Positions 10,646 to 35,376 of a stretch of DNA of 45,438 bases are shown here, one piece after another; positions within the stretch are counted from its first letter, which is position 1; each line of letters starts with the position of its first letter. The notes under the pieces were generated by a model, which was given only the letters and a program-made list of their open reading frames with translations, was not told the DNA's origin and did no database searches. Both the position numbers and the translations under genes were made by a program. This stretch comes from a virus (lineage: Duplodnaviria; Caudoviricetes): the IMG/VR virus record IMGVR_UViG_3300048598_000488, positions 1 through 45,438 of that record, one strand, 5' to 3'.

Positions 10646-12391
10646 TTGGTTTTGTCAATAGAATTAGTGGTTGATTCATTCGCGGGTGGAGGCGGTGCCA
10701 GCAAAGGAATTGAAATGGCAATCGGAAGAAGTGTTGATATAGCAATCAACCATGACCCTGACGCTATTAGGATGCACAAGGTAAACCACCCAAATACAAA
10801 ACACTATTGCGAGTCGGTTTGGGAGGTTGACCCAAAAGAAGCTACAGGAGGTAAGCCCGTCGCACTTGCTTGGTTCTCTCCTGACTGTACACACTTTTCA
10901 AAAGCAAAGGGCGGGAAACCAAAAGAAAAGAAGATCAGAGGGTTGGCCTGGGTAGCTGTAAAGTGGGCAAAAACAGTAAAGCCAAGAGTTATCATGTTGG
11001 AGAATGTTCAGGAATTTAAAACATGGGGACCACTGCTTATTGATGGTAGTCCGGATCCTAAGAAAAAAGGCCAAACGTTTGAATTGTTTGTAAACACACT
11101 TAAGAAGTTGGGATATCATGTCGAATACAGAGAACTTAGGGCATGTGATTATGGAGCCCCGACTTCTCGAAAAAGGTTTTTCTTAATCGCTCGTTGTGAC
11201 GGAAAACGAATTGTGTGGCCAGAACCTTCACATGCAGATCCAGATAGAATTGAGGCAAGGTGTGGATTGAAAAAGCCTTGGAGGACAGCGAGAGAAATAA
11301 TAGATTGGTCAATTCCTTGCAAGAGCATCTTTGACAGGAAAAAGCCTCTTAAGGAAAACACGCTTAGAAGAATTGTTAAGGGAATTGAGAAATTTGTTAT
11401 AAATAACCCAAGTCCATTTATAGTTCAGGTCAATTACAGCGGAAACAAACACCATTATACCAGTTCTATGGATGAACCTTTAAAGACAATCACCGAAAAG
11501 AATGGTTGGGCTGTTATTGCTCCTACGCTTATGGTTAATGAATTCAATAATGTGGGTGGTAGCATTGATAAACCTCTTCACACTATTTTAACCGGTAATC
11601 ATCATTATTTAATAACACCTTATATAGCACTAATCGGACATACAAAGTTTTGTAAAGATAGGGCATATCCTATTGAAGGTCCACTAACAACAGTAGTATC
11701 TAAGCAAGAACATATGTTGATAACCCCAACTTTAATTCAAATGGGATACGGCGAAAGAAAAGGACAGGCACCAAGGGTTTTGAATTTGGAGAGACCTATA
11801 GGGACAATTACAGCTAAAGGAAATAAATTTGCAGTTGCTGCAGCCCTCATAAGTAAGTATTATGCTGGCAATTACACAGGTGCAGGAGCAAATTTAGAGG
11901 AACCAACTCCCACAATAACTTCAAAAGATCATAACGCTTTGGTATCGGTTTTCATAATCCAACAATTCAAAAATTCAGTAGGACATGAAATGGAAAAACC
12001 TTTAAATTCAATAACAGCAATTAATAAGTCCGGCTTAGTGAAGGCTTTCCTTATGAAATACTATGGTTCGGATATAGGACAGGAATGTGATAAACCACTT
12101 CATACAATCACAAGCAAGGATAGATTTGGACTTGTAACTATCAAAGGTGAAGAGTATCAAATAGTGGACATAGGCATGAGGATGTTGGAACCACATGAGC
12201 TATTCGCAGCTCAGGGATTTCCAAAAGGTTATGTCATAGATAGAGATCACGAAGGAAAAAAGTATTCAAAGGCCGCACAGGTAGCAAGGTGTGGAAATGC
12301 AGTACCGCCACCATTTGCAAAGGCATTAGTAGAAGCCAACTTGCCAGAATTGTGTAAGAAAGAAGGAAGTAAAGAGTATGGAATTTTGTAA
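10646..12391 (+). CDS. DNA (cytosine-5) methyltransferase, phage type with repeat-expanded variable region
   Basis: Motif I FAGGGG, catalytic SPDC, ENV, RKRFFLIAR, RMLEPHELFAAQGF, motif X GNAV. Confidence 0.95.
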   Translation: MVLSIELVVDSFAGGGGASKGIEMAIGRSVDIAINHDPDAIRMHKVNHPNTKHYCESVWEVDPKEATGGKPVALAWFSPDCTHFSKAKGGKPKEKKIRGLAWVAVKWAKTVKPRVIMLENVQEFKTWGPLLIDGSPDPKKKGQTFELFVNTLKKLGYHVEYRELRACDYGAPTSRKRFFLIARCDGKRIVWPEPSHADPDRIEARCGLKKPWRTAREIIDWSIPCKSIFDRKKPLKENTLRRIVKGIEKFVINNPSPFIVQVNYSGNKHHYTSSMDEPLKTITEKNGWAVIAPTLMVNEFNNVGGSIDKPLHTILTGNHHYLITPYIALIGHTKFCKDRAYPIEGPLTTVVSKQEHMLITPTLIQMGYGERKGQAPRVLNLERPIGTITAKGNKFAVAAALISKYYAGNYTGAGANLEEPTPTITSKDHNALVSVFIIQQFKNSVGHEMEKPLNSITAINKSGLVKAFLMKYYGSDIGQECDKPLHTITSKDRFGLVTIKGEEYQIVDIGMRMLEPHELFAAQGFPKGYVIDRDHEGKKYSKAAQVARCGNAVPPPFAKALVEANLPELCKKEGSKEYGIL

Positions 12392-12608
12392 ATGCGGGTC
12401 AATGATCGTCAAGGGTTTTTGCTCAAATAAGAAGTGCAAGGAGCATGGACAAGTGGCTGAGCTTGCTACATACAGGCAAATGAATTATATTAAATCTCTT
12501 TGCACTTTATTGGATAAGGACGAGCCTGAGAATCTAATCCATATGACTAAAGTTGATGCAAGTAGTTTGATAAAAGAGTATGAGGAATTATTAGAACTTG
12601 CAAATTAA
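12378..12608 (+). CDS. Small hypothetical Cys-containing protein
   Basis: 76 aa, CxCG..CxxxxC N-terminus; overlaps MTase stop. Confidence 0.55.
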   Translation: MEFCKCGSMIVKGFCSNKKCKEHGQVAELATYRQMNYIKSLCTLLDKDEPENLIHMTKVDASSLIKEYEELLELAN

Positions 12609-12629
12609 TACAGAGGAAAGGGTGATTTA

Positions 12630-12944
12630 ATGGAATGTCCATATTGTGGAGCCGAATTAAAATATCATGATTTTTATTATTCTGGTAACTATGCTGCATA
12701 TGAAAAAGGCTATGCAGGTTCAGGGTTTAAGGTTAAGGGACACATATACAAATGTCCAAATTCTGAGGGATTTGAAGATTACGCAGAAGCGGAAAAGTAT
12801 GCAAAGGAAAAAGATATAGATATTGAAGCTTTTAAAATTACAGGTCAATTTACAGGTGGCGAAATTGTTTGTGATAGTGACACTCATAATGGAACTTTTT
12901 ACACAGATGAGCAGGGAAACTTACACGAAGGTTATCCATGTTAA
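12630..12944 (+). CDS. Hypothetical zinc-ribbon protein
   Basis: MECPYCG...YKCPN...C; SD AAAGGGTG. Confidence 0.6.
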   Translation: MECPYCGAELKYHDFYYSGNYAAYEKGYAGSGFKVKGHIYKCPNSEGFEDYAEAEKYAKEKDIDIEAFKITGQFTGGEIVCDSDTHNGTFYTDEQGNLHEGYPC

Positions 12945-12964
12945 ACAGATGAGGAATAAGGACT

Positions 12965-13429
12965 ATGAGCATTAGGTTTGAAGAGGCAGAGTTCAAGCAA
13001 ATATTAGTCAATCGTGAAATGAAGCAGGGCAGAACCTTAAAGCAAGCTTTGGATATTCTTTCAGAAAGTAAGCATAGGGAATTGTTCCGGAAGCCTTCCA
13101 AGGAAAAGAAGCTGAAGCACGGCAATGTTATCACAACTATAGACGGCATCAAGTTTCGCAGCAAGAAGGAAGCAAATTATTATTGCGAACTTAAGCTGAG
13201 AATGAAGGGAGGGGGGATAATCGGTTTCGTCATTCAACCAAAGTTCATCCTGCAGGAAGGCAATGAAACTGATAGGGCAATTACTTACTCTGCAGACTTT
13301 CTTGTAATCTTCCCGGACAACACCTGTGAAGTGGTTGACACCAAAGGATATGAGTCTAAAGAATGGCAGCGGACCTACAAAATGTTCCGGCTGAAGTACC
13401 CAAATATTGAGCTAAAAGTGGTGAAGTAG
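12965..13429 (+). CDS. DUF1064-like PD-(D/E)xK nuclease (possible Holliday junction resolvase)
   Basis: IDGIKFRSKKEANYY, QPKFIL, TYSADF, VVDTKG motifs. Confidence 0.85.
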   Translation: MSIRFEEAEFKQILVNREMKQGRTLKQALDILSESKHRELFRKPSKEKKLKHGNVITTIDGIKFRSKKEANYYCELKLRMKGGGIIGFVIQPKFILQEGNETDRAITYSADFLVIFPDNTCEVVDTKGYESKEWQRTYKMFRLKYPNIELKVVK

Positions 13430-14422
13430 ATGGATCTATGGCAGCTTAAACAAAGACAGTCGCTACCCTTACAAGTGAAAATCGAAATGTCAAAGCTGCG
13501 TATTCGCCGATGGTATGAGAAATTTGACGGTGATGTGTATATTAGTTTCTCTGGAGGCAAGGACAGTACAGTATTATTACACCTTGTAAGGTCAATGTAT
13601 CCTGAGGTACCAGCAGTATTTGTTGACACAGGGCTTGAATACCCAGAGATAAGGGATTTTGTAAAGACTGTTGATAATGTGGTGCAGCTCAAACCTAAGT
13701 TAAACTTTAGACAAGTTATAGAAAAACATGGGTACCCAATAGTAAGCAAGGAAGTAAGTGAAACCATAGATCAATGCAGGAAGGGTTATAAAAGCAGGTT
13801 TAAAAAGATAGACCCTAATTACAAAGGCAGATTTAAGTGTCAGAATTGGGCGTTTCTTATGGATGCACCTTTTAAAATATCAAACCTGTGTTGCTACGAA
13901 ATGAAGAAAAAGCCTGTAAAGAGCTTTGAAAAAAAGAACAACCTAAAACCCTTTGTTGGTACCATGGCGACTGAAAGTGCATTGAGGCGTTTATCTTGGC
14001 AAAAAAACGGTTGCAATTCTTTTAATACGCCAAGGCCAATATCACAACCATTGTCATTTTGGACAGAGCAGGACATATTTGAGTACATTGACACTTTCAA
14101 AACACCATATTGCAGCGTATACGGCAAAATAATGCTTGAATCATTCGATAGAGGCAAAACCTACCGTTATTGTACTGGCGTGAAAAGAACTGGCTGCATG
14201 TTTTGTATGTTCGGTGTCCACCTCGAAAAGGAGCCAAACCGATTCCAGCGAATGCAGAAGACCCACCCAAAGATGCATGATTATTGCACGAAAGACTGGG
14301 ATAAAGGCGGCCTAGGGTTGGCTAAAGTGCTTGAATACATAAGAGTACCTTATAAGGATTACATACCGCAGTTAAAGGATTATGAGCAAATGAGCATATT
14401 CAGAAAGGGAGAATCAAGTTAA
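13430..14422 (+). CDS. PAPS reductase family protein (PP-loop, Cys-rich)
   Basis: SFSGGKDS, FVDTGLEYPE, CCYEMKK, RTGCMFC. Confidence 0.9.
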   Translation: MDLWQLKQRQSLPLQVKIEMSKLRIRRWYEKFDGDVYISFSGGKDSTVLLHLVRSMYPEVPAVFVDTGLEYPEIRDFVKTVDNVVQLKPKLNFRQVIEKHGYPIVSKEVSETIDQCRKGYKSRFKKIDPNYKGRFKCQNWAFLMDAPFKISNLCCYEMKKKPVKSFEKKNNLKPFVGTMATESALRRLSWQKNGCNSFNTPRPISQPLSFWTEQDIFEYIDTFKTPYCSVYGKIMLESFDRGKTYRYCTGVKRTGCMFCMFGVHLEKEPNRFQRMQKTHPKMHDYCTKDWDKGGLGLAKVLEYIRVPYKDYIPQLKDYEQMSIFRKGESS

Positions 14423-15276
14423 TGAACAAAGTGTTAAAGTATCCCGGAGCAAAATGGCGTATAGCTGACTGGATCATAAATCAATTCCCAAAGCATCACA
14501 CATACCTAGAACCTTTCTTCGGCAGCGGTGCAATTCTATTTAATAAGCCTCCAAGTGCAATTGAAACAGTTAATGACTTAGATAGCGATGTTTGTAACCT
14601 GTTTAATTGTATAAATGAAGATGCTCAAAAGTTGGTCAGCATGGTTGCGTTAACTCCATTTTCAAGGGAAACATACGAAGAGAGTTTCAATACTGAACCT
14701 GATTGGTGGCAAAGAAAAATTACTGGGTTTGGAATGATTGGATATGAAAATAGCTTCGAAAAAGCAAGACAATTTTTAATAAAGTGCTGGCAAGGACATG
14801 GATTCCGCACAAATGGTTATAAAGTTGGCTGGAAAAACGATGTGCAGGGCAGGGAAAACATGTATGCGGTATATAACTGGTACCGCTTGCCTGAGTGGAT
14901 AATCGGCATAGTTGACAGGTTAAAGCAGGTACAAATAGAAAACCGTCCAGCCATTGAGATAATTAAAAGGTACAAGTATTCTAAAGTTTTAATTTATTGC
15001 GACCCACCTTATTTACTTGGTACCAGAACTGGAAAACAATACAAACATGAAATGTCAGAGCAGGATCACGTTGAGCTACTCGAAACATTAATGGAGCATC
15101 CAGGGCCAGTTATAATTTCTGGTTATGATTCTGACCTCTATAACTTGACATTAAAAGGATGGCATAAAAATCAGATCCAGAGTAACGCAGAGTATTATGC
15201 AGGCAAAAGCAGGACTGAGGTTATTTGGATGAATTACGAACCAACAATTGAACAAATGAGGATTGGAGGAATTTAG
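14422..15276 (+). CDS. DNA adenine methyltransferase (Dam/D12 class)
   Basis: KYPGAK, EPFFGSG, VNDLD, catalytic DPPY, ISGY, TEVIWMNY. Confidence 0.93.
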   Translation: MNKVLKYPGAKWRIADWIINQFPKHHTYLEPFFGSGAILFNKPPSAIETVNDLDSDVCNLFNCINEDAQKLVSMVALTPFSRETYEESFNTEPDWWQRKITGFGMIGYENSFEKARQFLIKCWQGHGFRTNGYKVGWKNDVQGRENMYAVYNWYRLPEWIIGIVDRLKQVQIENRPAIEIIKRYKYSKVLIYCDPPYLLGTRTGKQYKHEMSEQDHVELLETLMEHPGPVIISGYDSDLYNLTLKGWHKNQIQSNAEYYAGKSRTEVIWMNYEPTIEQMRIGGI

Positions 15277-15283
15277 TTGTGAC

Positions 15284-16180
15284 ATGAAAATTTTATTGAT
15301 TGATGTTGACAGTAAAATTCCTAATATCGCATTAATGAAGTTATCAGCATATCATAAATCCCTTGGTGATGAAGTGTTTTTAAACCATTGCGACAATCCC
15401 GATAAAGTATATGCCTCAGCAATATTTACAAGGTCAAAGCCTTACTGTGAAATTCTTTTAAAAATGTACCATGGAATAATTGAAATAGGCGGAACTGGTT
15501 GGGATATCGAAAAGAGATTGCCTCCAGAAGTTGAGAAAATGAATTGTGATTATAGCCTTTACAACTTTACTGAAGGCATGGGATTTACAACAAGAGGTTG
15601 CGTTCGAAACTGTGAATTCTGTTTTGTGCCAAAGAAAGAAGGAAAGCTCTGCCAAGATCAAAAGATAAAAGATATTATTAACGGTCCTAACTTAACTTTT
15701 TTGGATAATAATTTTACAGCTGATCTGCTTATGGTCGATAAATGCAGAGAAATCAAAGAAAGAAACCTTACTGTTAATATCTGCCAAGGCATGGATATTC
15801 GACTAATGACAGACGAAAAAGCTAAGGCAATAACCAGTATAAGACACAAAGACAATATTAAATTCGCTTGGGACCTTATGAAATATGAAAAACAGGTAAT
15901 GCAGGGAATTGAAATAATGACACAATACTGCAGCGGATCACGGTTAAAATGCTACATTCTTTGCGGTTATAATACTACTTTTGAGGAAGACATGTACAGG
16001 TTTAAGGTTTTAAGAAGTTTAAAAGTAAAGCCTTATGCAATGATTTATAACGATATTGAGGATAAAAGACTTAAGCACTTTGAGCGGTGGGTAAATGCCT
16101 ATATCTATTATAAATGTTCCTGGGATGAATATGAACCTTGGATAAAATCTCAAGGAATTAAGGGTCAAATAAGTATTTAA
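15284..16180 (+). CDS. Radical SAM protein
   Basis: TRGCVRNCEFC (CxxxCxxC), LDNNF, N-term PNIALMKLSAYHK. Confidence 0.88.
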   Translation: MKILLIDVDSKIPNIALMKLSAYHKSLGDEVFLNHCDNPDKVYASAIFTRSKPYCEILLKMYHGIIEIGGTGWDIEKRLPPEVEKMNCDYSLYNFTEGMGFTTRGCVRNCEFCFVPKKEGKLCQDQKIKDIINGPNLTFLDNNFTADLLMVDKCREIKERNLTVNICQGMDIRLMTDEKAKAITSIRHKDNIKFAWDLMKYEKQVMQGIEIMTQYCSGSRLKCYILCGYNTTFEEDMYRFKVLRSLKVKPYAMIYNDIEDKRLKHFERWVNAYIYYKCSWDEYEPWIKSQGIKGQISI

Positions 16181-19679: not shown

Positions 19680-20565
19680 AAATAATCTTCAAAAGGCAAA
19701 ACAATTTGCAAAACTTATTGTTGATAGCGACAAAACTCAATCAAACAAAGGTTTTTGTAATACCATTAATAATATGCTTCAGACATCTGCTATGAATTTA
19801 ATAGAACTACCACATGACATAAAAGGTATTTTGCATATGGAGGATGTTTCTGTTTCTTTTAATGAGGACAGATACTTCTTATCAGATAGGGAGTATGAAG
19901 TAGCAGAAGAGGTATTTGGTATGTACCAAACAAGCCAAAAGTTATCAGAGTTAGGTATCAACTATCTCAATTCGTTAATGCTTCATGGTGTTAGCGGGAC
20001 CGGAAAAACTTTATTTGGAAGATACATTGCATATAAGCTTGATCTGCCATTTGCATATATGAATTTTTCAAATGCAATAAGCAGCTACTTAGGAAGTACC
20101 GCAAAAAATATATCAAAGGCATTTGAACATATTGAAAAACAGAAATGTGTTTTTATGGTTGATGAAGTTGATGCCATCGGTATGAGAAGAGGAAAAGAAG
20201 ATGTTGGGGAAATGGCTAGAATAACAATAGGCCTTATGCAAGCTTTAGACTGCATCAAAAACGATACGATAGTAATAAGTGCAACTAATAGGATCGATAT
20301 GATAGATCCGGCTCTTTTAAGAAGATTTGCTATTGTTCATGAAGTAAAAAGACTTACTCCTGAGGAATTGACGGCACTAATATATAAATATTTAAACGCT
20401 GTAGGGATTAAATATGATGCACATAATATCATTTCATACTGCGAAAATTCTGAAAATACTCAGGCTCTAGTAATAAATGACGTGATAAGATCAATTGCAA
20501 AATCAATAAGATTTGGTACAGAGTTTGTATTAGGGGAGGTTGACCAGGCTAAAATGAAGGAGTGA
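19639..20565 (+). CDS. AAA+ ATPase
   Basis: Walker A GVSGTGKT, Walker B FMVDEVD, SRH ATNRIDMIDPALLRRF. Confidence 0.92.
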   Translation: MNQNLKCLIRSVAENNLQKAKQFAKLIVDSDKTQSNKGFCNTINNMLQTSAMNLIELPHDIKGILHMEDVSVSFNEDRYFLSDREYEVAEEVFGMYQTSQKLSELGINYLNSLMLHGVSGTGKTLFGRYIAYKLDLPFAYMNFSNAISSYLGSTAKNISKAFEHIEKQKCVFMVDEVDAIGMRRGKEDVGEMARITIGLMQALDCIKNDTIVISATNRIDMIDPALLRRFAIVHEVKRLTPEELTALIYKYLNAVGIKYDAHNIISYCENSENTQALVINDVIRSIAKSIRFGTEFVLGEVDQAKMKE

Positions 20566-20571
20566 TGATTG

Positions 20572-20679
20572 ATGTTTTTCTTAGGGATTTTAATAGGAGG
20601 AGTATTAGGTTTTGTAGTGGCCGGACTTACAATGTCTGCAAAAGAAGCAAGCGAAAGACGAAAGAGATACATTAGCTGA
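20572..20679 (+). CDS. Small single-TM peptide (35 aa, not in ORF track)
   Basis: SD AAGGAGTG; MFFLGILIGGVLGFVVAGLTMSAKEASERRKRYIS. Confidence 0.55.
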   Translation: MFFLGILIGGVLGFVVAGLTMSAKEASERRKRYIS

Positions 20680-20685
20680 AGAGTA

Positions 20686-20720
20686 AATAAAAAAGCTCCT
20701 ATTAAAGGAGCTTTTTTATT
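20686..20720. terminator. Bidirectional intrinsic terminator between convergent operons
   Basis: AATAAAAAAGCTCCT-ATTAA-AGGAGCTTTTTTATT perfect 15-bp inverted repeat. Confidence 0.9.
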
Positions 20721-20727
20721 TGGGCAT

Positions 20728-21108
20728 TTACAAGGATTTGAATATATTCTTTAACTCAGTAAAGTAACCATTTACTAATTCATTTCCATTATCGATAGTA
20801 TAAACTTTTTTATTGCTATTTCTCATGTCATCAAGGAATTTATATAATTCTTCACTGTCCCTGAAAAGCATACTAACACTTATTGTTGCTACAGAATCTA
20901 ATTTATTACTATGTAAATCCTCTAAAAGGCATTTTAAATGAGTTCTTTCAGTAGTCATACCACTTACATTATCATCAATGTAGTAGTCAATAATTTCAAC
21001 CTGATTTTCTTTAGCCCATAACTGCAATCGTGATTTGTGAAGATTCATTGTCTCTGGATCAGAAACACTACCATAACGGATGTAAATACCTACTTTATCC
21101 ATAAACAT
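20728..21108 (-). CDS. Stand-alone serine recombinase catalytic-fold domain, probably inactive
   Basis: YIRYGS (vs YxRVST), YIDDNVSG..ER..L..LL, SMLFR (vs DRLxR); 126 aa, no DNA-binding domain. Confidence 0.75.
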   Translation of the reverse strand: MFMDKVGIYIRYGSVSDPETMNLHKSRLQLWAKENQVEIIDYYIDDNVSGMTTERTHLKCLLEDLHSNKLDSVATISVSMLFRDSEELYKFLDDMRNSNKKVYTIDNGNELVNGYFTELKNIFKSL

Positions 21109-21181
21109 ACCCCTTTACATTAATTTACTTAATTCACTATATCATAAGAAATAAATTAAGGAAAGGTTAATACCTTTCCTT

Positions 21182-21340
21182 TTAAAAGTCAAACTCTCTA
21201 TCCAAAGTACCATTATCGCATTTATCTTTACAATCTTGACAGAAGCATTCACCAAACAGTTTATTGAACCATGCTGCAACAAGACCGCAAAAACATTTCT
21301 CCTCTTCCATACCAACTTTATCTACTTTTACCCATATCAT
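21182..21340 (-). CDS. Small Cys-rich protein (52 aa, not in ORF track)
   Basis: SD AGGAGG; MIWVKVDKVGMEEEKCFCGLVAAWFNKLFGECFCQDCKDKCDNGTLDREFDF. Confidence 0.55.
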   Translation of the reverse strand: MIWVKVDKVGMEEEKCFCGLVAAWFNKLFGECFCQDCKDKCDNGTLDREFDF

Positions 21341-21356
21341 TTTGATAACAAACCTC

Positions 21357-21599
21357 CTATGCTTTTTTTAGTGGCTTCATCAATTCTTTTAACTTATCAA
21401 TAAACGAAGCTTTTCTCCGAAACGATATGTAATTTCTGGTACATATGTTTTTAAAATAGTCCCTTCCTTTGTCGGTATACATATACATGTAATCTTCTGG
21501 ATTCTTTAATCCTCTGTTTATTGCATTCTGAAATGCTTCCTTGGGGTCCCTGATGTCCAGTTGTGCGAAAATTGAATCTCTATTTCTCTTAATTTCCAT
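21357..21599 (-). CDS. Hypothetical protein
   Basis: SD GGAGG; overlaps BRO gene stop. Confidence 0.6.
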   Translation of the reverse strand: MEIKRNRDSIFAQLDIRDPKEAFQNAINRGLKNPEDYMYMYTDKGRDYFKNICTRNYISFRRKASFIDKLKELMKPLKKA

Positions 21600-22410
21600 A
21601 ATAATCCTCCAGTGAATTCATATAATATTCCCCGACAACCCTTTTGTTTGAATTAGACTTATATTGAATCAATCCTTTTTCCACAAGAGTACTACGAGCT
21701 TTTGCCAGTGTTTTATCAGTTATACCAAGTTTACTTTGCAATGTCGAATTGGATGCTTTAAACCATCCGGTATAATTGAAACTGTATTTTAATTCTATAA
21801 GTGCATACCAAAGTGCCTGAGCTGTTGAACCTATTTGCAATGTTTCTGCAAGCTGCCTGAATTTATGTATATCGTTTGTCGTGCTATCATTGGATTGAAT
21901 CTGCGGCAGTTCAATATCTCCAGCGAGCAAATGTAAAGCTTGTAACCTTACCTTTTTGACTAATACCTGGTCCGATTCATTGGACACTGTCTTCATCAGT
22001 TCCTTGGCTTGCCTGATTTTTGTATTCAGGATTTTATTCTCTGTTTCCATTGCCTTAATCTTTAACCGCTCTGCAGATTCATTAAAACCATACTGGCCAG
22101 TTTTGCGGATTGACGGAATAACTTCATGAGTTATCCATCGTTTGAATTGTTTTGCTTCGGGCTTGTTGGATGTTAAAATTAATGAATATAAACCGGATTC
22201 GTTAATGACAGTCATTTTTTGATTACCGCCAAGGGTACGAATTATATTCGTATCCTTTTCATCACCGTCTAATCTGCTAACGGTTTTAGATACATCAGTT
22301 AGTTCTAAAATGTCGCAAACGTCCTTAGCTACCCACCAAGGTTCGTTATCCTTTACCACTGTTCTTATTTCTTTAATGCCATAATTAAAAATCTGTAATT
22401 CTTTCGACAT
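21589..22410 (-). CDS. BRO-N antirepressor fused to an initiator-type winged HTH
   Basis: EPWWVAKDVCDIL, INESGLYSLILTSNKPEAKQFKRWITHEVIPSIRKTGQY; C-term aligns without gaps to initiator N-term. Confidence 0.9.
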   Translation of the reverse strand: MSKELQIFNYGIKEIRTVVKDNEPWWVAKDVCDILELTDVSKTVSRLDGDEKDTNIIRTLGGNQKMTVINESGLYSLILTSNKPEAKQFKRWITHEVIPSIRKTGQYGFNESAERLKIKAMETENKILNTKIRQAKELMKTVSNESDQVLVKKVRLQALHLLAGDIELPQIQSNDSTTNDIHKFRQLAETLQIGSTAQALWYALIELKYSFNYTGWFKASNSTLQSKLGITDKTLAKARSTLVEKGLIQYKSNSNKRVVGEYYMNSLEDYYGN

Positions 22411-22434
22411 ACTGTGTCCTCCTATATAATTTGC

Positions 22435-22496
22435 ACGGACTTGTGACCGTTGGCTACTGCCAGTGCATTAACAGGGCTTATGCCCTGTCACTCTGC
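22435..22496 (-). ncRNA. Twister-like self-cleaving ribozyme, type-P5 permutation
   Basis: Minus strand GCAGAGUG-ACAGGGC-AUAA-GCCCUGU-U^AAUGC-ACU-GGC-AGUA-GCC-A-ACGGUCACAAGUCCGU: P1, P2, P3, P4 and both pseudoknots (CAC/GUG, AC/GU) can form. Confidence 0.8.
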
Positions 22497-22726
22497 AATT
22501 CTCTAATTTCTCTCTGTAAAGCACTAATTTGATACTCTTTTTCTGATATCTTCTTAGCCCTAGGGTATAAGTCATAAAATATTGTCATACCATGCTTTTT
22601 GTACATTTCCACAACCTGTTCTTTTTCACTTATTCCAGGATAGTTCATATATACAATTTCTATCATTTCATATATTTCATCTGTGACTTCCGCATCTATA
22701 AGATTCTCAAATTCATGTTTCATCAT
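22478..22726 (-). CDS. Hypothetical phage protein
   Basis: SD AGGGGG; MMKHEFENLI..YEMIEIVYMNYP. Confidence 0.65.
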   Translation of the reverse strand: MMKHEFENLIDAEVTDEIYEMIEIVYMNYPGISEKEQVVEMYKKHGMTIFYDLYPRAKKISEKEYQISALQREIRELQSDRA

Positions 22727-22739
22727 TGTAAATTCCCCC

Positions 22740-23141
22740 TCATATTATTCCTGTATATACAGTTTCAGTTTTTAAAGTTTCTATATATGCCAAAGCATCA
22801 TGTGCCTTGTCTCTTTTAATGTCCATCTTTATCATGGCTAATTCAAGCATACGATTCATTTCTCTATACTTTAATTCACTCTCTAGTATGTAGGTATATA
22901 CCTCGTTTAATTGGGATTTTATATTGAAAGTAGGAGTATTTGAACGGTTCCCAAGATTCTCAAGGGCCCGGCATTGATCTTGTAAAGTCGCCTGTGAATT
23001 AACTAGTATGATAGGCTCATTGACAGTACTGACCTTAACTTTAACCGCTGGTACTTGTAATTTGATATCACAGTAAAATTCGAAAACTTCACTTTTACTG
23101 TTCTCAGAAATGAATTTTGACTTCTTAAGTTTAATTTGCAT
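22740..23141 (-). CDS. Hypothetical protein
   Basis: Start moved to ATG 23141 after SD AGGAGG. Confidence 0.6.
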   Translation of the reverse strand: MQIKLKKSKFISENSKSEVFEFYCDIKLQVPAVKVKVSTVNEPIILVNSQATLQDQCRALENLGNRSNTPTFNIKSQLNEVYTYILESELKYREMNRMLELAMIKMDIKRDKAHDALAYIETLKTETVYTGII

Positions 23142-23216
23142 AATAATCCTCCTCTGATACACCCATTGGAGGATTGCCATTTGCCATACCATAGAATCAA
23201 TAACACATAACATATA

Positions 23217-23324
23217 TTGATAATGTTGTAGACCTATGGTATATTAAAAATGACATTACCCTTTTGGGTGTTGTTCTTGTTTAGGAAGTCTGTAAGTTTG
23301 CGAGACCGATCAGGCTTCCTTTTA
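23217..23324 (+). ncRNA. Putative ~75-nt antisense sRNA with promoter, inside the leftward operon
   Basis: TTGATA (23217-22), 17 bp, TGn-TATATT (23240-45); hairpin TACCC-TTTT-GGGTG, then AGGAAGTCTG..CAGGCTTCCT plus T-tract. Confidence 0.6.
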
Positions 23325-23492
23325 ATTTTGTTTGTTATTGTCAATCCACTTAATAACTGCTTCTTTTTCGAATCGAACACTTCTACCGATCTTTACGAAT
23401 GGCAAACCTTTTTCGCGCCATCTTTCCAAGGTTTTTCTTGTAACTTTTAACCATTTGCACATTTCATCAACGGTTAAAAATTCTTTATCCAT
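23322..23492 (-). CDS. Excisionase-like (HTH_17/MerR-like) DNA-binding protein (56 aa, not in ORF track)
   Basis: SD GGAGGTGA; MDKEFLTVDEMCKWLKVTRKTLERWREKGLPFVKIGRSVRFEKEAVIKWIDNNKQN. Confidence 0.88.
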   Translation of the reverse strand: MDKEFLTVDEMCKWLKVTRKTLERWREKGLPFVKIGRSVRFEKEAVIKWIDNNKQN

Positions 23493-23522
23493 GATTCACC
23501 TCCAGATTTTTCATTGAGTAGA

Positions 23523-23606
23523 TATAAGACATTATAGGACATTATGAAACGTATGTCAATATAATTATGTTAAATTATTGCTGTCAGCAAATAAGTGTAA
23601 TATAAT
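23523..23606. promoter_or_regulatory. Divergent sigma-A promoters with 10-bp direct repeats
   Basis: Minus: TTGACA (23559-54), 17 bp, TATAAT (23536-31), overlapped by TATAAGACAT/TATAGGACAT/TATGAAACGT; plus: TTGCTG (23578-83), 17 bp, TATAAT (23601-06). Confidence 0.75.
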
Positions 23607-23639
23607 CATGGTAAAATTATCTATCAGAGAGTGTATATT

Positions 23640-24104
23640 ATGAAAAAGTATTTAATCTTAGGTGCTATTGTTGGAGTTTTAATATCTGTAATTGGTTTTA
23701 GGGTTTATAAGTATTATAACTATTCCGGTGAGCTTATAGGAATAAAAGGGGCATATACATACCACAAAGATAATTGTGCCTTTGTTAAAAAGGCAGGTGC
23801 TGATAAACTTATATTTATTGATAGCCTGAAAGAAGCTGCGGAGCATGACTACAGATCATGTAAAAGTTGTGATCCTCCAAGTAACGAAAAGTATGTTGCA
23901 GAAATTGAAAAGCAAAAAGAGTTAGATCGTAAGAAAGCTGAGGAACAAAAACAAGCTTGGGAAAAAGAAAAGTTATCTAAAGTCAAACAAGACTTCATAG
24001 ATGGGAAGTCTTTAAAATCATCTGATGTAATAGATCTATACGACAAAGGACTTATAACTAAGGATGAATATGATGCTTATGAATCTAAATTTTCTATAAA
24101 ATAA
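23640..24104 (+). CDS. Membrane-anchored protein with Ada-type metal-binding domain and SHOCT-like tail (moron)
   Basis: N-term TM; YHKDNC..EAAEHDYRSCKSC; LYDKGLITKDEYDA; own promoter and downstream hairpin. Confidence 0.7.
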   Translation: MKKYLILGAIVGVLISVIGFRVYKYYNYSGELIGIKGAYTYHKDNCAFVKKAGADKLIFIDSLKEAAEHDYRSCKSCDPPSNEKYVAEIEKQKELDRKKAEEQKQAWEKEKLSKVKQDFIDGKSLKSSDVIDLYDKGLITKDEYDAYESKFSIK

Positions 24105-24139
24105 TTGATAATTTTTATTTAAAAATATATAATTTTCAC

Positions 24140-24182
24140 AAACCTTGCAAACCAGTATTTATAACTTCTGCAAGGTTTTTTG
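24140..24182 (+). terminator. Terminator-like inverted repeat
   Basis: AAACCTTGCA..TGCAAGGTTT followed by Ts; loop is long. Confidence 0.45.
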
Positions 24183-24409
24183 TTATCACAAATCTATCAA
24201 AAATTATAAAAATCTATATAATTTTATATAAAAATTTAATAATTTTCATATGTTTTTCGCATTTTTCTCATATTTCTGCAATTGCAATCAGCCTTAAAGC
24301 CAGTGAAATCAACTTCTACAAGACTGTTTTTGGAATAACTAAAAAACCTATTATATAATATAATCAGGCTTTATTATTTGGCGTGACCATTTTACTCCTT
24401 TCCGGCAGG

Positions 24410-24440
24410 AGGACAACCCTTCTTCATAGGTTGTCCTTTT
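24410..24440 (+). terminator. Intrinsic terminator
   Basis: AGGACAACC..GGTTGTCCT-TTT. Confidence 0.65.
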
Positions 24441-24479
24441 GTTGTTATAGGTAGGATATGGCAAATAAATTACCAGTTA

Positions 24480-24683
24480 GCTATCGGAGATTTTACGACA
24501 GTTACATAAAACTACCGGAGAATTTCCGATAGTTGAAAGTTTTACCCCCTGTATTAACGAAGATATTACCGGAAAATTTCCGGTAGTGGGCCAGTTTCTT
24601 CTTTATAATAAAATATAAACAAAACTATATAGTATATCTTAGTATATATAGTATAGGAAAACTACCGTAAAAATTCCGGTAGT
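24480..24683. repeat. Four 23-bp palindromes matching the initiator-gene iterons (second origin-like locus)
   Basis: ACTACCGGA-N5-TCCGGTAGT-like copies at 24480, 24511, 24565, 24661; 22-bp and 24-bp blocks identical to 10058-10079 and 10111-10134. Confidence 0.8.
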
Positions 24684-24712
24684 CAATTTCCAGTTTTATG
24701 TGAGGGATTTTT

Positions 24713-25198
24713 ATGGATGAAGATGAAAAGCTATTTCAGGAGTCATATGAGCTTAGAGAACTTGCAGAACAGATAATAGTAAAGCGTAGAGAACTCCATT
24801 GGCTTGTAGAAGCTGATATAGTGCCGCTTATAGGATATGTTAAAGCTGCAGAGAACAAAAAGCCTAATAAAGGTAAAGTTCCTTTTGCAGACTGTAGGAA
24901 GGTTTCTGGACCAGTTAAAGCTTTTTGCCCATATGAAATGCTTATAACAGTTTATCCTAATGCTTATGACCTTTTAAATTACAACCAGTTTAAAATTATG
25001 ATGCTTCATGAACTTAAACACGTTGGGGAAGGCAAAGACGGCTTAACGGTAAAACCACATAACGTTGAGGATTTCTATAGCATACTTTCTGAGTTCGGGA
25101 TTGAATGGACTCATTACAATAACGAGAATCTGCCAGATATTTTAACAGAGGAAGAAGGTGAGAAGGATGAAAAGGAAAAGCCAAAAAAGAAACAATAA
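24713..25198 (+). CDS. Putative phage metallopeptidase
   Basis: MLHELKH (HExxH) and PHNVEDF; directly upstream of TerS. Confidence 0.8.
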   Translation: MDEDEKLFQESYELRELAEQIIVKRRELHWLVEADIVPLIGYVKAAENKKPNKGKVPFADCRKVSGPVKAFCPYEMLITVYPNAYDLLNYNQFKIMMLHELKHVGEGKDGLTVKPHNVEDFYSILSEFGIEWTHYNNENLPDILTEEEGEKDEKEKPKKKQ

Positions 25199-31038: not shown

Positions 31039-31215
31039 ATGGGTGTAGAGGTTAAATGCAAAATAGACAACAAAAAACTGTTTGAACTTAATGGTGATAT
31101 GATTGAGATTTTGTGTCCAAAAGAGAAGAGGATTATAAAAATACCATTACGTAAGCTTTTGGAAGCTTCTACATCCACATCAAGTGAACTTAAAGAAAAA
31201 GTACTAAAGTTTTAG
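31039..31215 (+). CDS. Com-like zinc-ribbon regulator with degenerate ligands
   Basis: EVKCKIDNKKLFEL..IEILCPKEKRI resembles Com-family EIRCxxCxKLL..IEIKCPRC; SD GAGGT. Confidence 0.55.
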   Translation: MGVEVKCKIDNKKLFELNGDMIEILCPKEKRIIKIPLRKLLEASTSTSSELKEKVLKF

Positions 31216-31286
31216 GGAATTGTGTAATGGTAGCACATGGGCCTTTGACGCCCACTGTCTAGGTTCGAAACCTAGTTTCCTAGCCA
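31213..31286 (+). tRNA. tRNA-Gln (anticodon TTG)
   Basis: Acceptor TAGGGAA/TTTCCTA, D-arm GTGT/GCAC, anticodon arm TGGGC-CTTTGAC-GCCCA, T-arm CTAGG-TTCGAAA-CCTAG, encoded CCA. Confidence 0.95.
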
Positions 31287-31591: not shown

Positions 31592-34225
31592 ATGTCGTTA
31601 ACACCACTATCCAGAGGACATAAGAAAGCATTAAACAGAGAAAACCCTGTCTTTAGAGACATGGGTTTCGGAAATATTGTTGAAAGTATAATTAATGGTC
31701 ATAATTCACTTCAGTCTGATACTGTAAATTTAGGGAAAAGTGTTGTGAACGAAGAGATAGTTCAGCCTTATGCAACTTGGCAATTAGGAACTATTGAAAC
31801 TATTACTGGTGTAGCAGTTTCAAATCCAATAAGAATAAGAACTGCAAATTATATTAATAGTAAAGATACTGATAAAATAACCATTTTGTCCGGGTTTGAA
31901 GCATATCTTTATTTTTACACTCACAACGGAATCGACTATGTTTATCAAGGCATGTGGAATGGTTTGACATTGGCAACATCAGGAGGAATAACAGTAACAT
32001 CGTTTGACTTTAGAACACTCAATTCTGAATATTACTATAAAATTGTGCTTAAAAAAATAGACAATAGCAGCATTGTAACTGGAGATGGTGTAAATGTAAC
32101 GTATTCTATACTTAACATCCCAAAAAGCTTGATATCTGAGTTTGCCACAGCAAACGGATATAACGAGGATATTAACAAAAGAAGCACTTGGGAACATGGA
32201 GGCATTTCGGCAGGAACTCAAGATAATGCTACAATGCACAAAAGAATGAGGTCAAGAGGTTATGTTAATCTTACTAACGTAGAAAAGATTATTGCACGTC
32301 CAGGTTATGGGTTTATTTTGTATCAATTTGATACAGCTGACTCTTATGTAGGTTATTGGCAACCTAGCAATTTTTCTTTTGGCTCAACTATCACAGCAAC
32401 GTGGGAGTCAGAAGTAGATATGTTACAGATTGATAAATCACTGAAATATAAAATAGCTTTTAGAAAAATAGACGAATCAAATCTTGTAAATGATGATTGG
32501 AAAGCTGTATCCTTCTTAAGGTCAAAAATAAATAAAATCGATTTGACAATAGCGGCATCAACAGATATAACAGCTAAATGTGATATTCGAAAACACACTA
32601 TAAGTGTAAGTTCTACACCTTTAGATATTAACAATAATCCAAACGCAAATGGTGTTTACAAGTGGCAGCTACTAAAAACCGCCACATCTGAGTATGCAAA
32701 ATCTTGTGTTATACCTGTACGAAAAGGATATTATTATACAATTTCGCATACCGGTGATAGATTTACTTTTGCATTGTATAAGTATCAATACAAGAGTAAT
32801 GTTTATGCTACGATTAATCTTGGCAAAAGGATATTTACCCAAACATACACTTATTACTGTGACACAGATGAATATCAGTTTTTGATTGTCTACTACAATT
32901 GGGCTGTTACCAATCCTACAATAACAGTAACTGAAATAGCAAAATACTCTCCGGAGGTTGGTAATATAATTGGGCTTAGAGAGAACATGTACAAATCAAA
33001 GGGTAATCTTGCACTTGCTATACAGGAACAAAAACTTGAGGCAAGGGTAAATGCTCACATTGCTGCAAATGGTCTTACCATTGGAGGTGTGACAAAAACA
33101 AGGGAACAGATAAGAGACTGGATGCTTAATCGTAATAATTGCTTGTATCGTGGCAAATTAAAAAAGAAGGGAAAATATATTGTCGATTCAGCGGATAAGC
33201 CTGTTGAATTATTCGGAGTAGGACTGTTTCATACACCGGATTTAGTACATAAATTACATACTAAGGAGACTCTTAAACTGCTAAAATATCATGGCGTAAA
33301 CATTATAAGATTTCCTGTTCAGCCAAGATATTACTATTCGTTAGGATATAACAAGGATTTTTATACCAGAGGGTATGACACCCAAGCAGCAACAATTAAG
33401 AATTATTTATCTCAAATAATAAACTGGTGTGAAGAGTTAGGATTGTATGTAATTGTAGACTGGCATGTAATGGAGGCTGATGGGAAAACTGGTGCAGATG
33501 CATATGGAGATGGTGGTACTGGCAACGGAAACGCTGCAAATCCAACACTCATTGCTATGGCTACAGACCTATTCACTCATGTTGCAACTAATCATTCAGA
33601 ATCACCAAATGTCTTGTATGAGATACTCAACGAGCCGTTTGCTAACACAATTGCCAGCCTTGCAAGTTATATTACTACTATCAAAGGAATTATAACATCA
33701 CATGTAACAAATCCAATAATTATTTTAGGTAGATGTGCTCCAACTACTGGATATGTTTATTCCAATCCTGCTACTGAGCAAGATGTTATTAATAATATAG
33801 ACAGAGCAATAACAGATGTATGGGACTGGATGCAGTCAAACGGACATACGGATATATATATATCTGTACATGATTATGTAACAGATGTAAATTTGCTTTC
33901 GACATATCAGACACATTGGAATAACAATGTGCCACTATTTATGACTGAATGGGGTAATTCTGATTTCTCTGGCAATGGTGCAATAAATGATGCAAGAGCA
34001 CATGCATTACTTGATTGGCATCATACAAATGCTGTTCCTCAATGTGTTTGGAAATGGACATATAGGGATAGCACAACATCATTTTTAAATCCAGAGAGTG
34101 ATAGTGATGATGGTTACTACAGATATGGATTTGCAGAAAGTGATCTAACCCATAACGGTAGATTGTTTTTGAAGCAATTTGAAAAAAATGCATTCGAAGA
34201 TTATATCACTAGATCGGCAGTATAA
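31592..34225 (+). CDS. Large modular protein with C-terminal glycoside hydrolase family 5 domain
   Basis: NIIRFP, LGLYVIVDWH, acid/base YEILNEP, SVHDY, nucleophile FMTEWG; two repeated beta-rich N-terminal modules (WQLG..RIRT, WEHG..RMRS). Confidence 0.85.
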   Translation: MSLTPLSRGHKKALNRENPVFRDMGFGNIVESIINGHNSLQSDTVNLGKSVVNEEIVQPYATWQLGTIETITGVAVSNPIRIRTANYINSKDTDKITILSGFEAYLYFYTHNGIDYVYQGMWNGLTLATSGGITVTSFDFRTLNSEYYYKIVLKKIDNSSIVTGDGVNVTYSILNIPKSLISEFATANGYNEDINKRSTWEHGGISAGTQDNATMHKRMRSRGYVNLTNVEKIIARPGYGFILYQFDTADSYVGYWQPSNFSFGSTITATWESEVDMLQIDKSLKYKIAFRKIDESNLVNDDWKAVSFLRSKINKIDLTIAASTDITAKCDIRKHTISVSSTPLDINNNPNANGVYKWQLLKTATSEYAKSCVIPVRKGYYYTISHTGDRFTFALYKYQYKSNVYATINLGKRIFTQTYTYYCDTDEYQFLIVYYNWAVTNPTITVTEIAKYSPEVGNIIGLRENMYKSKGNLALAIQEQKLEARVNAHIAANGLTIGGVTKTREQIRDWMLNRNNCLYRGKLKKKGKYIVDSADKPVELFGVGLFHTPDLVHKLHTKETLKLLKYHGVNIIRFPVQPRYYYSLGYNKDFYTRGYDTQAATIKNYLSQIINWCEELGLYVIVDWHVMEADGKTGADAYGDGGTGNGNAANPTLIAMATDLFTHVATNHSESPNVLYEILNEPFANTIASLASYITTIKGIITSHVTNPIIILGRCAPTTGYVYSNPATEQDVINNIDRAITDVWDWMQSNGHTDIYISVHDYVTDVNLLSTYQTHWNNNVPLFMTEWGNSDFSGNGAINDARAHALLDWHHTNAVPQCVWKWTYRDSTTSFLNPESDSDDGYYRYGFAESDLTHNGRLFLKQFEKNAFEDYITRSAV

Positions 34226-34271
34226 TTAAATTCGACACTCTTTATAACAAAATGAGTGAAAAAGAATTTAT

Positions 34272-34352
34272 AATTAAATACCCTCTTTATGTTCTCTTTA
34301 TTATTTAATTATGGTATAATATGGCGAAATATAATAAAGGGGGTATTTAATT
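34272..34352 (+). promoter_or_regulatory. Extended -10 promoter enclosed by a 19-bp inverted repeat covering the acyltransferase SD
   Basis: AATTAAATACCCTCTTTAT (34272-90) / ATAAAGGGGGTATTTAATT (34334-52); TGGTATAAT at 34312-20. Confidence 0.65.
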
Positions 34353-35376
34353 GAAAAGCAATAGAATGTCAATCTTGGATTATTTGAAAGCATTTGCAAT
34401 TATCTTGGTAATTATTAATCATTCATGGCCCGAAAGCTTAAAAGATGCACCTATATTTATTTTTATTATTAGAATGGCTGTTCCTATTTTTATGGTTGTA
34501 AGCGGATATACATTTGCTATGTCTTACTGCAAGTATAACAATTTTAAGGGAATGTACTCACTGAAAAGTTTGATTTCTAAGTTCGTTAGATTTACGGTTC
34601 CTGTAATAATAACCTATTTGTTATTTATTGTGTACAAGGTAGCACAAACTGGGCCTGTTGGCATAAAAGAGATTGTTAAAACATTTATAATGTCGGACTA
34701 TGGGAAAGGGTCGTATTATTATGCTCTTTTAATTCAATTACTACTAATTTTCCCATTGATATATGCCGTAATGAAAAAATCAAAATATGGGCTATTAGCT
34801 ATTGGGGCCGTTAATCTTGTTTATGAAATAATGATACATATAATAGATATTGGAATTCCTCTTTACAGGATTGTCTTTTTCAGATATCTGCTTTTTGTAG
34901 GGATGGGCAGCTTTCTTTATATGTATCGTAATAGAATAAATATATTTGTTTTAATATCATCTTTTGTGATAGGAAGTATATATTTGCTTTCATATAATTA
35001 TTTAGGTTATGAGTTAAAGCTTTTTACTTATCAGCCATGGGCAAATACATCCATGATATCTGCTTTTTACATATTTCCATTCATGTATGTAGCTTGCTAC
35101 AAGTTTAAAGATTTTAGATTCAGAGGACTAACAGATAAGTTATTATCGAATATAGGAAAGGCATCATACCAAATACTTTTTGTGCAGATGATATATTTTT
35201 GGGTTGCGGATAGGTTTTACAATAAAGTAAATTTTCCATTAGTAGTACAAATAATAATTAATGTAGGTATATGTACAACTATAGGGATTATTTATTTAAA
35301 GTATGATAACATAATGGTTAATGCTATTAATAATATACTAGTTCCAAAAAACAAGAATTTTAAAATTAGTGCATAG
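34351..35376 (+). CDS. Acyltransferase family 3 (OafA-like membrane O-acetyltransferase)
   Basis: R..LDYLKAFAIILVIINH, AVPIFMVVSGY, IGKASYQILFVQ; multiple TM helices. Confidence 0.92.
   Translation: MKSNRMSILDYLKAFAIILVIINHSWPESLKDAPIFIFIIRMAVPIFMVVSGYTFAMSYCKYNNFKGMYSLKSLISKFVRFTVPVIITYLLFIVYKVAQTGPVGIKEIVKTFIMSDYGKGSYYYALLIQLLLIFPLIYAVMKKSKYGLLAIGAVNLVYEIMIHIIDIGIPLYRIVFFRYLLFVGMGSFLYMYRNRINIFVLISSFVIGSIYLLSYNYLGYELKLFTYQPWANTSMISAFYIFPFMYVACYKFKDFRFRGLTDKLLSNIGKASYQILFVQMIYFWVADRFYNKVNFPLVVQIIINVGICTTIGIIYLKYDNIMVNAINNILVPKNKNFKISA

Follow-up and report, generated by a model that had tools for sequence, protein, structure and literature searches.

The window analysed here is a whole viral record of 45,438 nt (35.9% GC). 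Its genes include a repressor/cro-like switch, whose repressor is encoded at 497-1054, as well as recombination, replication, terminase, portal and capsid genes, and nearly all of them lie on the plus strand. From sequence similarity we infer that the host belongs to the phylum Bacillota, since the sole RecT match was a Clostridium innocuum phage (38.8%) and the Bro-N matches came chiefly from Paenibacillus, Streptococcus and Bacillus phages. Two other regions of the plus strand stand out. One cluster (10646-16180) encodes C5 and N6 DNA methyltransferases together with a PAPS-reductase-domain gene and a radical SAM gene, which suggests DNA modification. Between the terminase genes, the small and large of which are about 10 kb apart, 31592-35376 holds an acyltransferase-3 gene and a gene for an 877-aa protein containing a GH5 domain (cellulase family), both adjoining the tRNA at 31213-31283. 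The ribozyme described below sits in a minus-strand cassette, the features of which are the following:

23531..23559, minus strand: sigma-70-type promoter (12/12 consensus, 17-nt spacer; consensus match only)
23322..23492, minus strand: HTH_17 gene (excisionase-like), 56 aa, the first of the operon
22740..23141, minus strand: orphan ORF of 133 aa (157 aa from the first ATG at 23213)
22478..22726, minus strand: 82-aa ORF, function unassigned, phrog_31564
22435..22497, minus strand: type-P5 twister ribozyme with a P3 stem (RF02684, 54.5 bits, and folding)
22418..22423, minus strand: Shine-Dalgarno sequence AGGAGG, 7 nt before the ATG at 22410 and outside the ribozyme
21589..22410, minus strand: 273-aa protein with Bro-N (residues 14-99), a linker and a C-terminal DnaD-like winged helix (residues 175-273)
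21158..21599, minus strand: two small orphan ORFs (80 and 52 aa), then a terminator-like hairpin at 21181-21158

The promoter at 23559-23531 likely drives this leftward operon, the hairpin at 21181-21158 likely ends it, and a single transcript from the promoter would span it. The TGA of the 133-aa ORF overlaps the ribosome-binding site of the following gene, and a homologue search with this ORF found itself alone. The stretch that separates the HTH_17 gene from the 133-aa ORF (23140-23330, minus strand) folds at -52.1 kcal/mol (z -4.17; 0/200 shuffles as good). Its predicted fold has a hairpin immediately behind the stop of HTH_17, followed by a long stem and by a final hairpin pairing the Shine-Dalgarno sequence of the next gene. 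It gave no Rfam match up to E 5, and a 17-nt piece of it had no exact match among the viral contigs; it is a possible translational control element. At its other end, the minus-strand cassette is closed by a gene for a stand-alone resolvase N-terminal domain (126 aa, minus strand, within 20685-21108) and a bidirectional terminator-like hairpin near 20685-20720. The contigs of one sequencing run, probably of DNA, contained a 150-nt piece identical to 22809-22958 and nothing that covers the ribozyme.

When the whole 45,438-nt window was scanned against Rfam at the gathering threshold, two matches were obtained, namely, the tRNA and Twister-P5 (RF02684) at 22497-22435 on the minus strand. The latter scored 54.5 bits against a gathering threshold of 37.6 (E 1e-8) and covered model positions 1-58 of 58. 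A first-pass annotation, made from the letters alone, had called a type-P5 twister here and named this covariance model as the check; the full-length match bears out that identity. The scan found just this one ribozyme within the 45-kb window, and a second Rfam RNA within 20500-25000 was rejected, as only chance-level matches appeared there. The ribozyme and its immediate downstream flank are composed as follows:

22489..22497, minus strand: 5' strand with P2 GCA (22496-94), G22493, A22492 and T1 GUG (22491-89)
22471..22488, minus strand: P1 hairpin, 22488-22482/22477-22471, 7 Watson-Crick pairs, -12.5 kcal/mol
22469..22470, minus strand: scissile U^A, predicted by alignment to the Rfam consensus
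22435..22467, minus strand: P2 strand UGC, T2 AC, P3, P4 and the loop UCACAAGU
22431..22436, minus strand: downstream GUGCA(A), which can either compete for P2 or pair with UGCAC at the 5' end of the 3' product

A pair-by-pair check recovered the annotated pairing elements at their coordinates on the minus strand. P2 joins GCA 22496-94 to UGC 22467-65 and may gain a fourth pair, U22497-A22464. The loop UCACAAGU of P4 holds the partners of both pseudoknots: T1 pairs GUG 22491-89 with CAC 22445-43 (three Watson-Crick pairs), and T2 pairs AC 22464-63 with GU 22440-39 (two pairs). P4 has 3 to 4 bp, including the G22447-C22438 pair, and the termini lie at the P5 position. The proposed P3 and P4 were both found, but there is a second reading in which P3 has 4 bp (22462-59/22454-51) and adjoins T2, with a single A separating it from a P4 of CGG/CCG. 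Since that A is also needed for an A-U pair closing P4 at its base, the two readings compete. Aligned to the consensus, the core comprises G22493, A22492, U22470, A22469, A22468, U22446, A22442, A22441 and G22440, and G22493 is predicted to act as the general base by analogy with the twisters treated in the available part of PMC5408937. The ribozyme strand folds at -27.9 kcal/mol (z -4.59), and 0/200 shuffles were as good. The predicted cut, U22470^A22469, is placed as the annotation had it, 59 nt before the Bro-N ATG at 22410, and lies 8 nt past the stop of the 82-aa ORF. This stop (22480-22478) is indeed inside the P1 loop, and the last six codons of the ORF lie with it within the ribozyme.

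Two features of the core could weaken it. A22464 can serve P2 or T2, never both, and full T2 pairing leaves a P2 of 3 bp. Solved twisters, which are of the P1 and P3 types, have a P2 of 4 bp, and a change in P2 length has been suggested to disturb the active site (PMC5408937, available part). The competing UUGCA/UGCAA pairing that had been pointed out also exists, as a minority form: leaving pseudoknots aside, four of its pairs have predicted probabilities of 0.19-0.26 and the fifth one of 0.055, compared with 0.65-0.70 for P2, and about a quarter of the predicted ensemble adopts it. Calculated without pseudoknots, this closure has -24.0 kcal/mol, compared with -23.5 to -25.2 kcal/mol for the active secondary structure. 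The short P2, the shared A22464 and the competing closure could thus leave most molecules of this copy misfolded, making it slow or inactive. We regard this as improbable. Every core residue is present, and the form of T2 is a common one among the phage copies, as follows.

A general P5 pattern scan of viral contigs gave 127 loci from 9 of the 64 parts of the collection, from which about 850 stretches are estimated overall. Among 138 distinct pattern matches, the 79 with a P1 of at least 5 bp and a P4 of at least 3 bp were kept, and 59 were rejected. Selection considered P1 and P4 alone; the pattern itself preset the outer bases of T1 and a single base of T2. The middle T1 pair, which the pattern left free, was Watson-Crick in 78/79 kept copies (four pair types) versus 33/59 rejected matches. 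The pseudoknot pairs GUG/CAC and AC/GU, earlier described as compensatory, are present in the window, and the middle T1 pair covaries in the phage copies. T2 was paired in 73/79 copies: it immediately follows UGC in 36, is set off from it by one base in 34 and fits either register in 3. The other 6 pair in neither register. AC/GU directly after UGC, the form of the window, was found in 22/79. The linker nucleotide that the annotation had found missing after P2 is indeed absent, but we rejected the idea that this is a defect, because 36/79 phage copies have T2 fully paired in that position. A structural filter over the pooled scans gave 120 distinct P5-like sequences, window included, and Rfam confirmed Twister-P5 above threshold in 20/20 sampled loci (19 of the filtered set and locus L152), which also argues against an inactive copy. 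Some of the twisters have other ribozymes within a few kb, pistol in L152 and L014 and type II hammerhead in L004 and L031, and two loci (L033, L049) are clusters of four.

We then turn to the position of the stop codon. ORFs of at least 50 aa were called mechanically around the P5 copies, 89 of which had sufficient flanking sequence. In 39/89, the end of the upstream stop and the GCA were 0-3 nt apart, and in 70/89 this stop fell within -12..+45. The corresponding values were 1/88 and 16/88 in an opposite-strand control and 0.8% and 17% in a shifted-anchor control (n=2636). Clustering by upstream flank reduced 91 copies to 82 contexts, with a stop 0-3 nt before the GCA in 33 (31 under stricter labels) and within -12..+45 in 64. 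The 0-3 nt signal was seen in both scans (general, 22/48; narrower, 11/34) and in both the low- and the high-GC class. Compact phage operons could cause part of this stop-hugging; the controls do not model intergenic length. The cut preceded the next start by a median of 61.5 nt (68 of the 82 contexts), compared with 59 nt in the window.

That the overlap with the upstream stop is special to this locus is not supported: a stop at or inside the 5' end is the usual arrangement, as the 64 of 82 phage contexts within -12..+45 show. Nor is the P1-loop stop a conserved feature. The stop lay inside the 5' half of the ribozyme in 18/82 contexts and in the P1 loop in only about 4/82, though 33/82 loops hold a stop triplet. 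L152 is identical to the window at 31 of 32 nt from GCA to UGC, loop included; there, the gene upstream, an unrelated one of 61 aa, terminates immediately before the GCA (0 nt), and the triplet in the loop lies in another frame. The window is a typical P5 copy with a less common stop position; its P1-loop stop would represent a compact form of the arrangement in which a ribozyme sits at the stop codon.

A near-identical 5' half behind an unrelated gene in another phage would also fit a mobile ribozyme module whose arrival at the end of a gene was tolerated, with no selected effect on this operon. In line with this, distant homologues of the 82-aa ORF (30-49% identity) had the ribozyme in 0 of 20 scanned loci (24 found). 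We nevertheless give a neutral passenger little credence: the strict strand and position bias and the maintained covariation point to selection, and only one ribozyme lies within the 45-kb window. Both this reading and an inactive copy are less likely than the two functional readings discussed below. The two closest homologues of the 82-aa ORF, P0001 and P0002 (80% and 63%), end in the register of the window protein, whereas homologues at 52% and 40% local identity do not. Moreover, the L152 ribozyme, translated in the frame of the window, encodes exactly the last five residues of the 80% homologue. Judging from these terminal protein residues, the overlap of coding sequence and ribozyme may be common to a small lineage. 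If the last codons of P0002, which is available as protein, are ribozyme derived, its Cys codon would alter a conserved A, a point in favor of inactivity.

The gene downstream had been labeled an antirepressor. Its product has a Bro-N domain (PF02498, E 1.8e-26), and residues 1-214 match Ant PHROGs, including phrog_130. Antirepressor-type C-terminal domains are ANT/KilA-C and ORF6C. Pfam found no such domain in the 273-aa protein; HTH_36 alone appeared, below the cut-off. Residues 175-273 resemble DnaD-like/replisome-organiser winged helices (TM 0.83-0.87 between predicted models). The Bro-N part of the label stands, but the C-terminal part resembles a DnaD-like winged helix and not an ANT domain, and "antirepressor" is therefore only a domain label. 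For residues 100-273 of this fusion of Bro-N to a DnaD-like winged helix, no homologue was found among 191 candidates of 150-478 aa.

The proposed tie between ribozyme and antirepressor did not hold up. A search of the viral contigs with the Bro-N protein found no locus, and blastn against 50,697 phage records matched just about 150 nt of Bro-N, in 40 records; the 700-nt flanks of 6 of these 40 gave no Rfam match. Among the downstream ORFs of the P5 copies, 3/68 had a Pfam match at 1e-6 and 0/68 were Bro-N. A conserved twister-antirepressor module was rejected, since the scanned homologues of neither flanking gene carry the ribozyme and none of the 68 downstream genes is Bro-N. A regulated switch, glmS-like or translation gated, would be coupled in a conserved way to one input and one downstream gene; what we found was a P1-loop stop in about 4/82 contexts and diverse genes downstream.

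We also compared type-P1 twisters. The P1-type scan gave 139 loci from 7 of the 64 parts, with 105 distinct sequences, which filtering for flank and redundancy reduced to 55 contexts. Twenty picked loci, mostly hairpin bearing, matched twister-P1 at E 8e-13 to 5e-6; all scored below the gathering threshold of 67.2, so standard scans would miss them. In these contexts, the stop was at most 3 nt from the P1 stem in 1/55 and at -45..-13 in 23/55. A perfect GC-rich hairpin abutted the 5' side of P1 in 24/55, versus 26 of 1870 control positions, and 31/55 were without a perfect hairpin; a hairpin of -6 kcal/mol or better was there in 34/55, versus 8 and 14 in two controls. This hairpin is probably the optional P0 stem named in PMC5408937 (available part). 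Relative to its start, the stop of the 24 hairpin-bearing contexts lay at -9..+1 in 11, inside the hairpin in 5 and further upstream in 6, with none in 2. Type-P1 contexts are without the P5-style 5' P1 hairpin of their own. The median distance from stop to cut was 25.5 nt for type P1 (n=40) and 31.5 nt for type P5 (n=72).

Both permutations thus tend to leave an upstream product composed of stop, hairpin and end, and the hairpin may shield its 3' end. The rule would read: a stop codon, a GC-rich hairpin, a cut about 25-30 nt past the stop and then a ribosome-binding site, with type P5 meeting it through its own P1 hairpin and many type-P1 copies by means of P0, which is optional. P0 and P1 may accordingly serve to cap the 3' end, a role that is open to testing. 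Earlier work on bacterial 3'-UTR ribozymes (reference 148 of PMC6765202) may already describe the stop-adjacent position or the P0 role.

We consider plain mRNA processing the probable function, with some reserve: the ribozyme would cut polycistronic RNA without a dedicated input, largely constitutively. Cleavage between 22470 and 22469 would split the operon mRNA into an upstream piece ending in the stop codon and the P1 hairpin, and a downstream 5'-OH piece carrying the Bro-N gene and its ribosome-binding site. It would fall in the gaps between ribosomes. P1 would shield the upstream piece from 3' exonucleases, and the downstream piece would have its own half-life, being either exposed to RNase J, like glmS, or shielded by the UGCAC/GUGCA stem. 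Such a cut would serve to make the levels of upstream and downstream genes independent of each other. We rejected a release of the Shine-Dalgarno sequence by the cut, since its predicted accessibility is similar before and after. The family match with its intact core, the diverse downstream genes, the positional rule and the covariation are counted in favor of processing, which has been suggested for polycistronic RNAs with bacterial twisters (PMC6765202, available part). A twister cut in an Escherichia coli 5' UTR by itself left reporter expression unchanged (PMC5052635, available part). Against processing, the P1 hairpin of the window is coding sequence for half its length and would be melted by every ribosome that terminates, and reported twister rates near 2.4 per min (PMC5408937, available part) are slow relative to ribosome traffic, so translation could matter.

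The main alternative is translation-gated cleavage, in which ribosomes ending the 82-aa ORF would repeatedly melt P1, P2 and T1. With the 5' strand occupied, the downstream GUGCA would capture UGCAC in a kinetic trap, cutting would occur mainly when translation slows, and the fate of the Bro-N mRNA would change accordingly. The geometry behind this holds: P1, the T1 strand and the catalytic G would all lie under a terminating ribosome whose A site contains the stop. On the footprint that we assume, it would extend from 22483 to about 22469, positions +4..+15 covering 22480-22469 and the scissile bond lying at about +14/+15. The slow cleavage rates and the two homologues ending in the same register speak for gating as well.

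The best argument for gating is the trap. The downstream half alone is predicted to fold UGCAC onto GUGCA with a probability of 0.82, versus 0.37 for shuffled tails (15/200 shuffles as high). In phage P5 contexts, a GCA starts 3-9 nt after L4 in 30/80, versus 371/2855 background windows, and native tails pair UGC above shuffled ones (0.586 versus 0.411, n=81, p=2e-4; the contexts are not fully independent). The G of that GCA, however, is often part of P4, and the enrichment is equally explained by 5'-end protection: in the predicted 3' product, UGCAC/GUGCA closes the 5' end and leaves two bases free.

Further points count against gating. The P1-loop stop is not conserved, as L152 illustrates, and type-P1 copies keep the stop off their core in an otherwise parallel layout. 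Bacillota, the presumed host phylum, are classed with bacteria whose RNA polymerases outrun ribosomes (PMC13323073, available part). In addition, cleavage would be practically irreversible, so an intermittent block would merely slow it. We therefore find gating at this locus unlikely, and it is equally doubtful that phage P5 twisters in general are ribosome-gated cutters parked under the terminating ribosome (64/82 contexts) with a GCA trap. From the original idea of translation-coupled antirepressor tuning, the ribosome geometry survives, and the locus-specific stop overlap and the antirepressor tie are not supported. If gating were true, the window copy would be an extreme case, tying the mRNA fate of a Bro-N/winged-helix regulator to host translation.

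Plain processing remains our preferred reading, and the locus is a useful test case for the question of why phages carry self-cleaving ribozymes between genes. Translation passes through the core of this copy, so that a single construct can tell plain processing and gating apart. The roles of bacterial self-cleaving ribozymes are described as largely elusive (PMC6765202, available part). Among the titles and abstract openings searched, we found nothing on the stop-hairpin-cut rule, which Roth et al. 2014 may cover, and no ribosome-gated natural self-cleaving ribozyme; absence from print is not thereby established. The word "ribozyme" does not occur in the text of PMC7821165.

Four known systems can be compared with the locus. 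The window protein shares its N-terminal Bro-N with the phage Bro-N/Ant antirepressors (PF02498; phrog_130), but it has a winged helix at 175-273 and no ANT-type C-terminal Pfam domain. The glmS ribozyme-riboswitch likewise cuts upstream of a gene and leaves a 5'-OH product, which is degraded by RNase J1 in Bacillus subtilis (10.1101/2023.03.12.532304, available part). Unlike glmS, the window twister has no ligand-binding feature, is intergenic rather than at the mRNA head and has no conserved downstream gene.

The prophage hammerheads (Perreault et al. 2011, PMC3088659, available part) are also self-cleaving RNAs between varied phage genes. They cleave in vitro and in E. coli and were proposed to cut long transcripts into gene-sized pieces; the term "stop codon" is absent from the available main text. 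The window differs in ribozyme class and in having a single copy. Finally, the type-P5 twister class (RF02684) goes back to Roth et al. 2014, as cited in the available parts of PMC5408937 and PMC6765202. With it the window shares the permutation, P1, P2 and P4, the U^A site, the GA after P2, L4 and both pseudoknots. It departs from it in a T2 of AC/GU that adjoins a 3-bp P2, where the class has GC/GC and 4 bp, in a P3 stem absent from the Rfam consensus and in overlapping a coding 3' end. The window twister is a routine addition to a known family, in a known kind of place.
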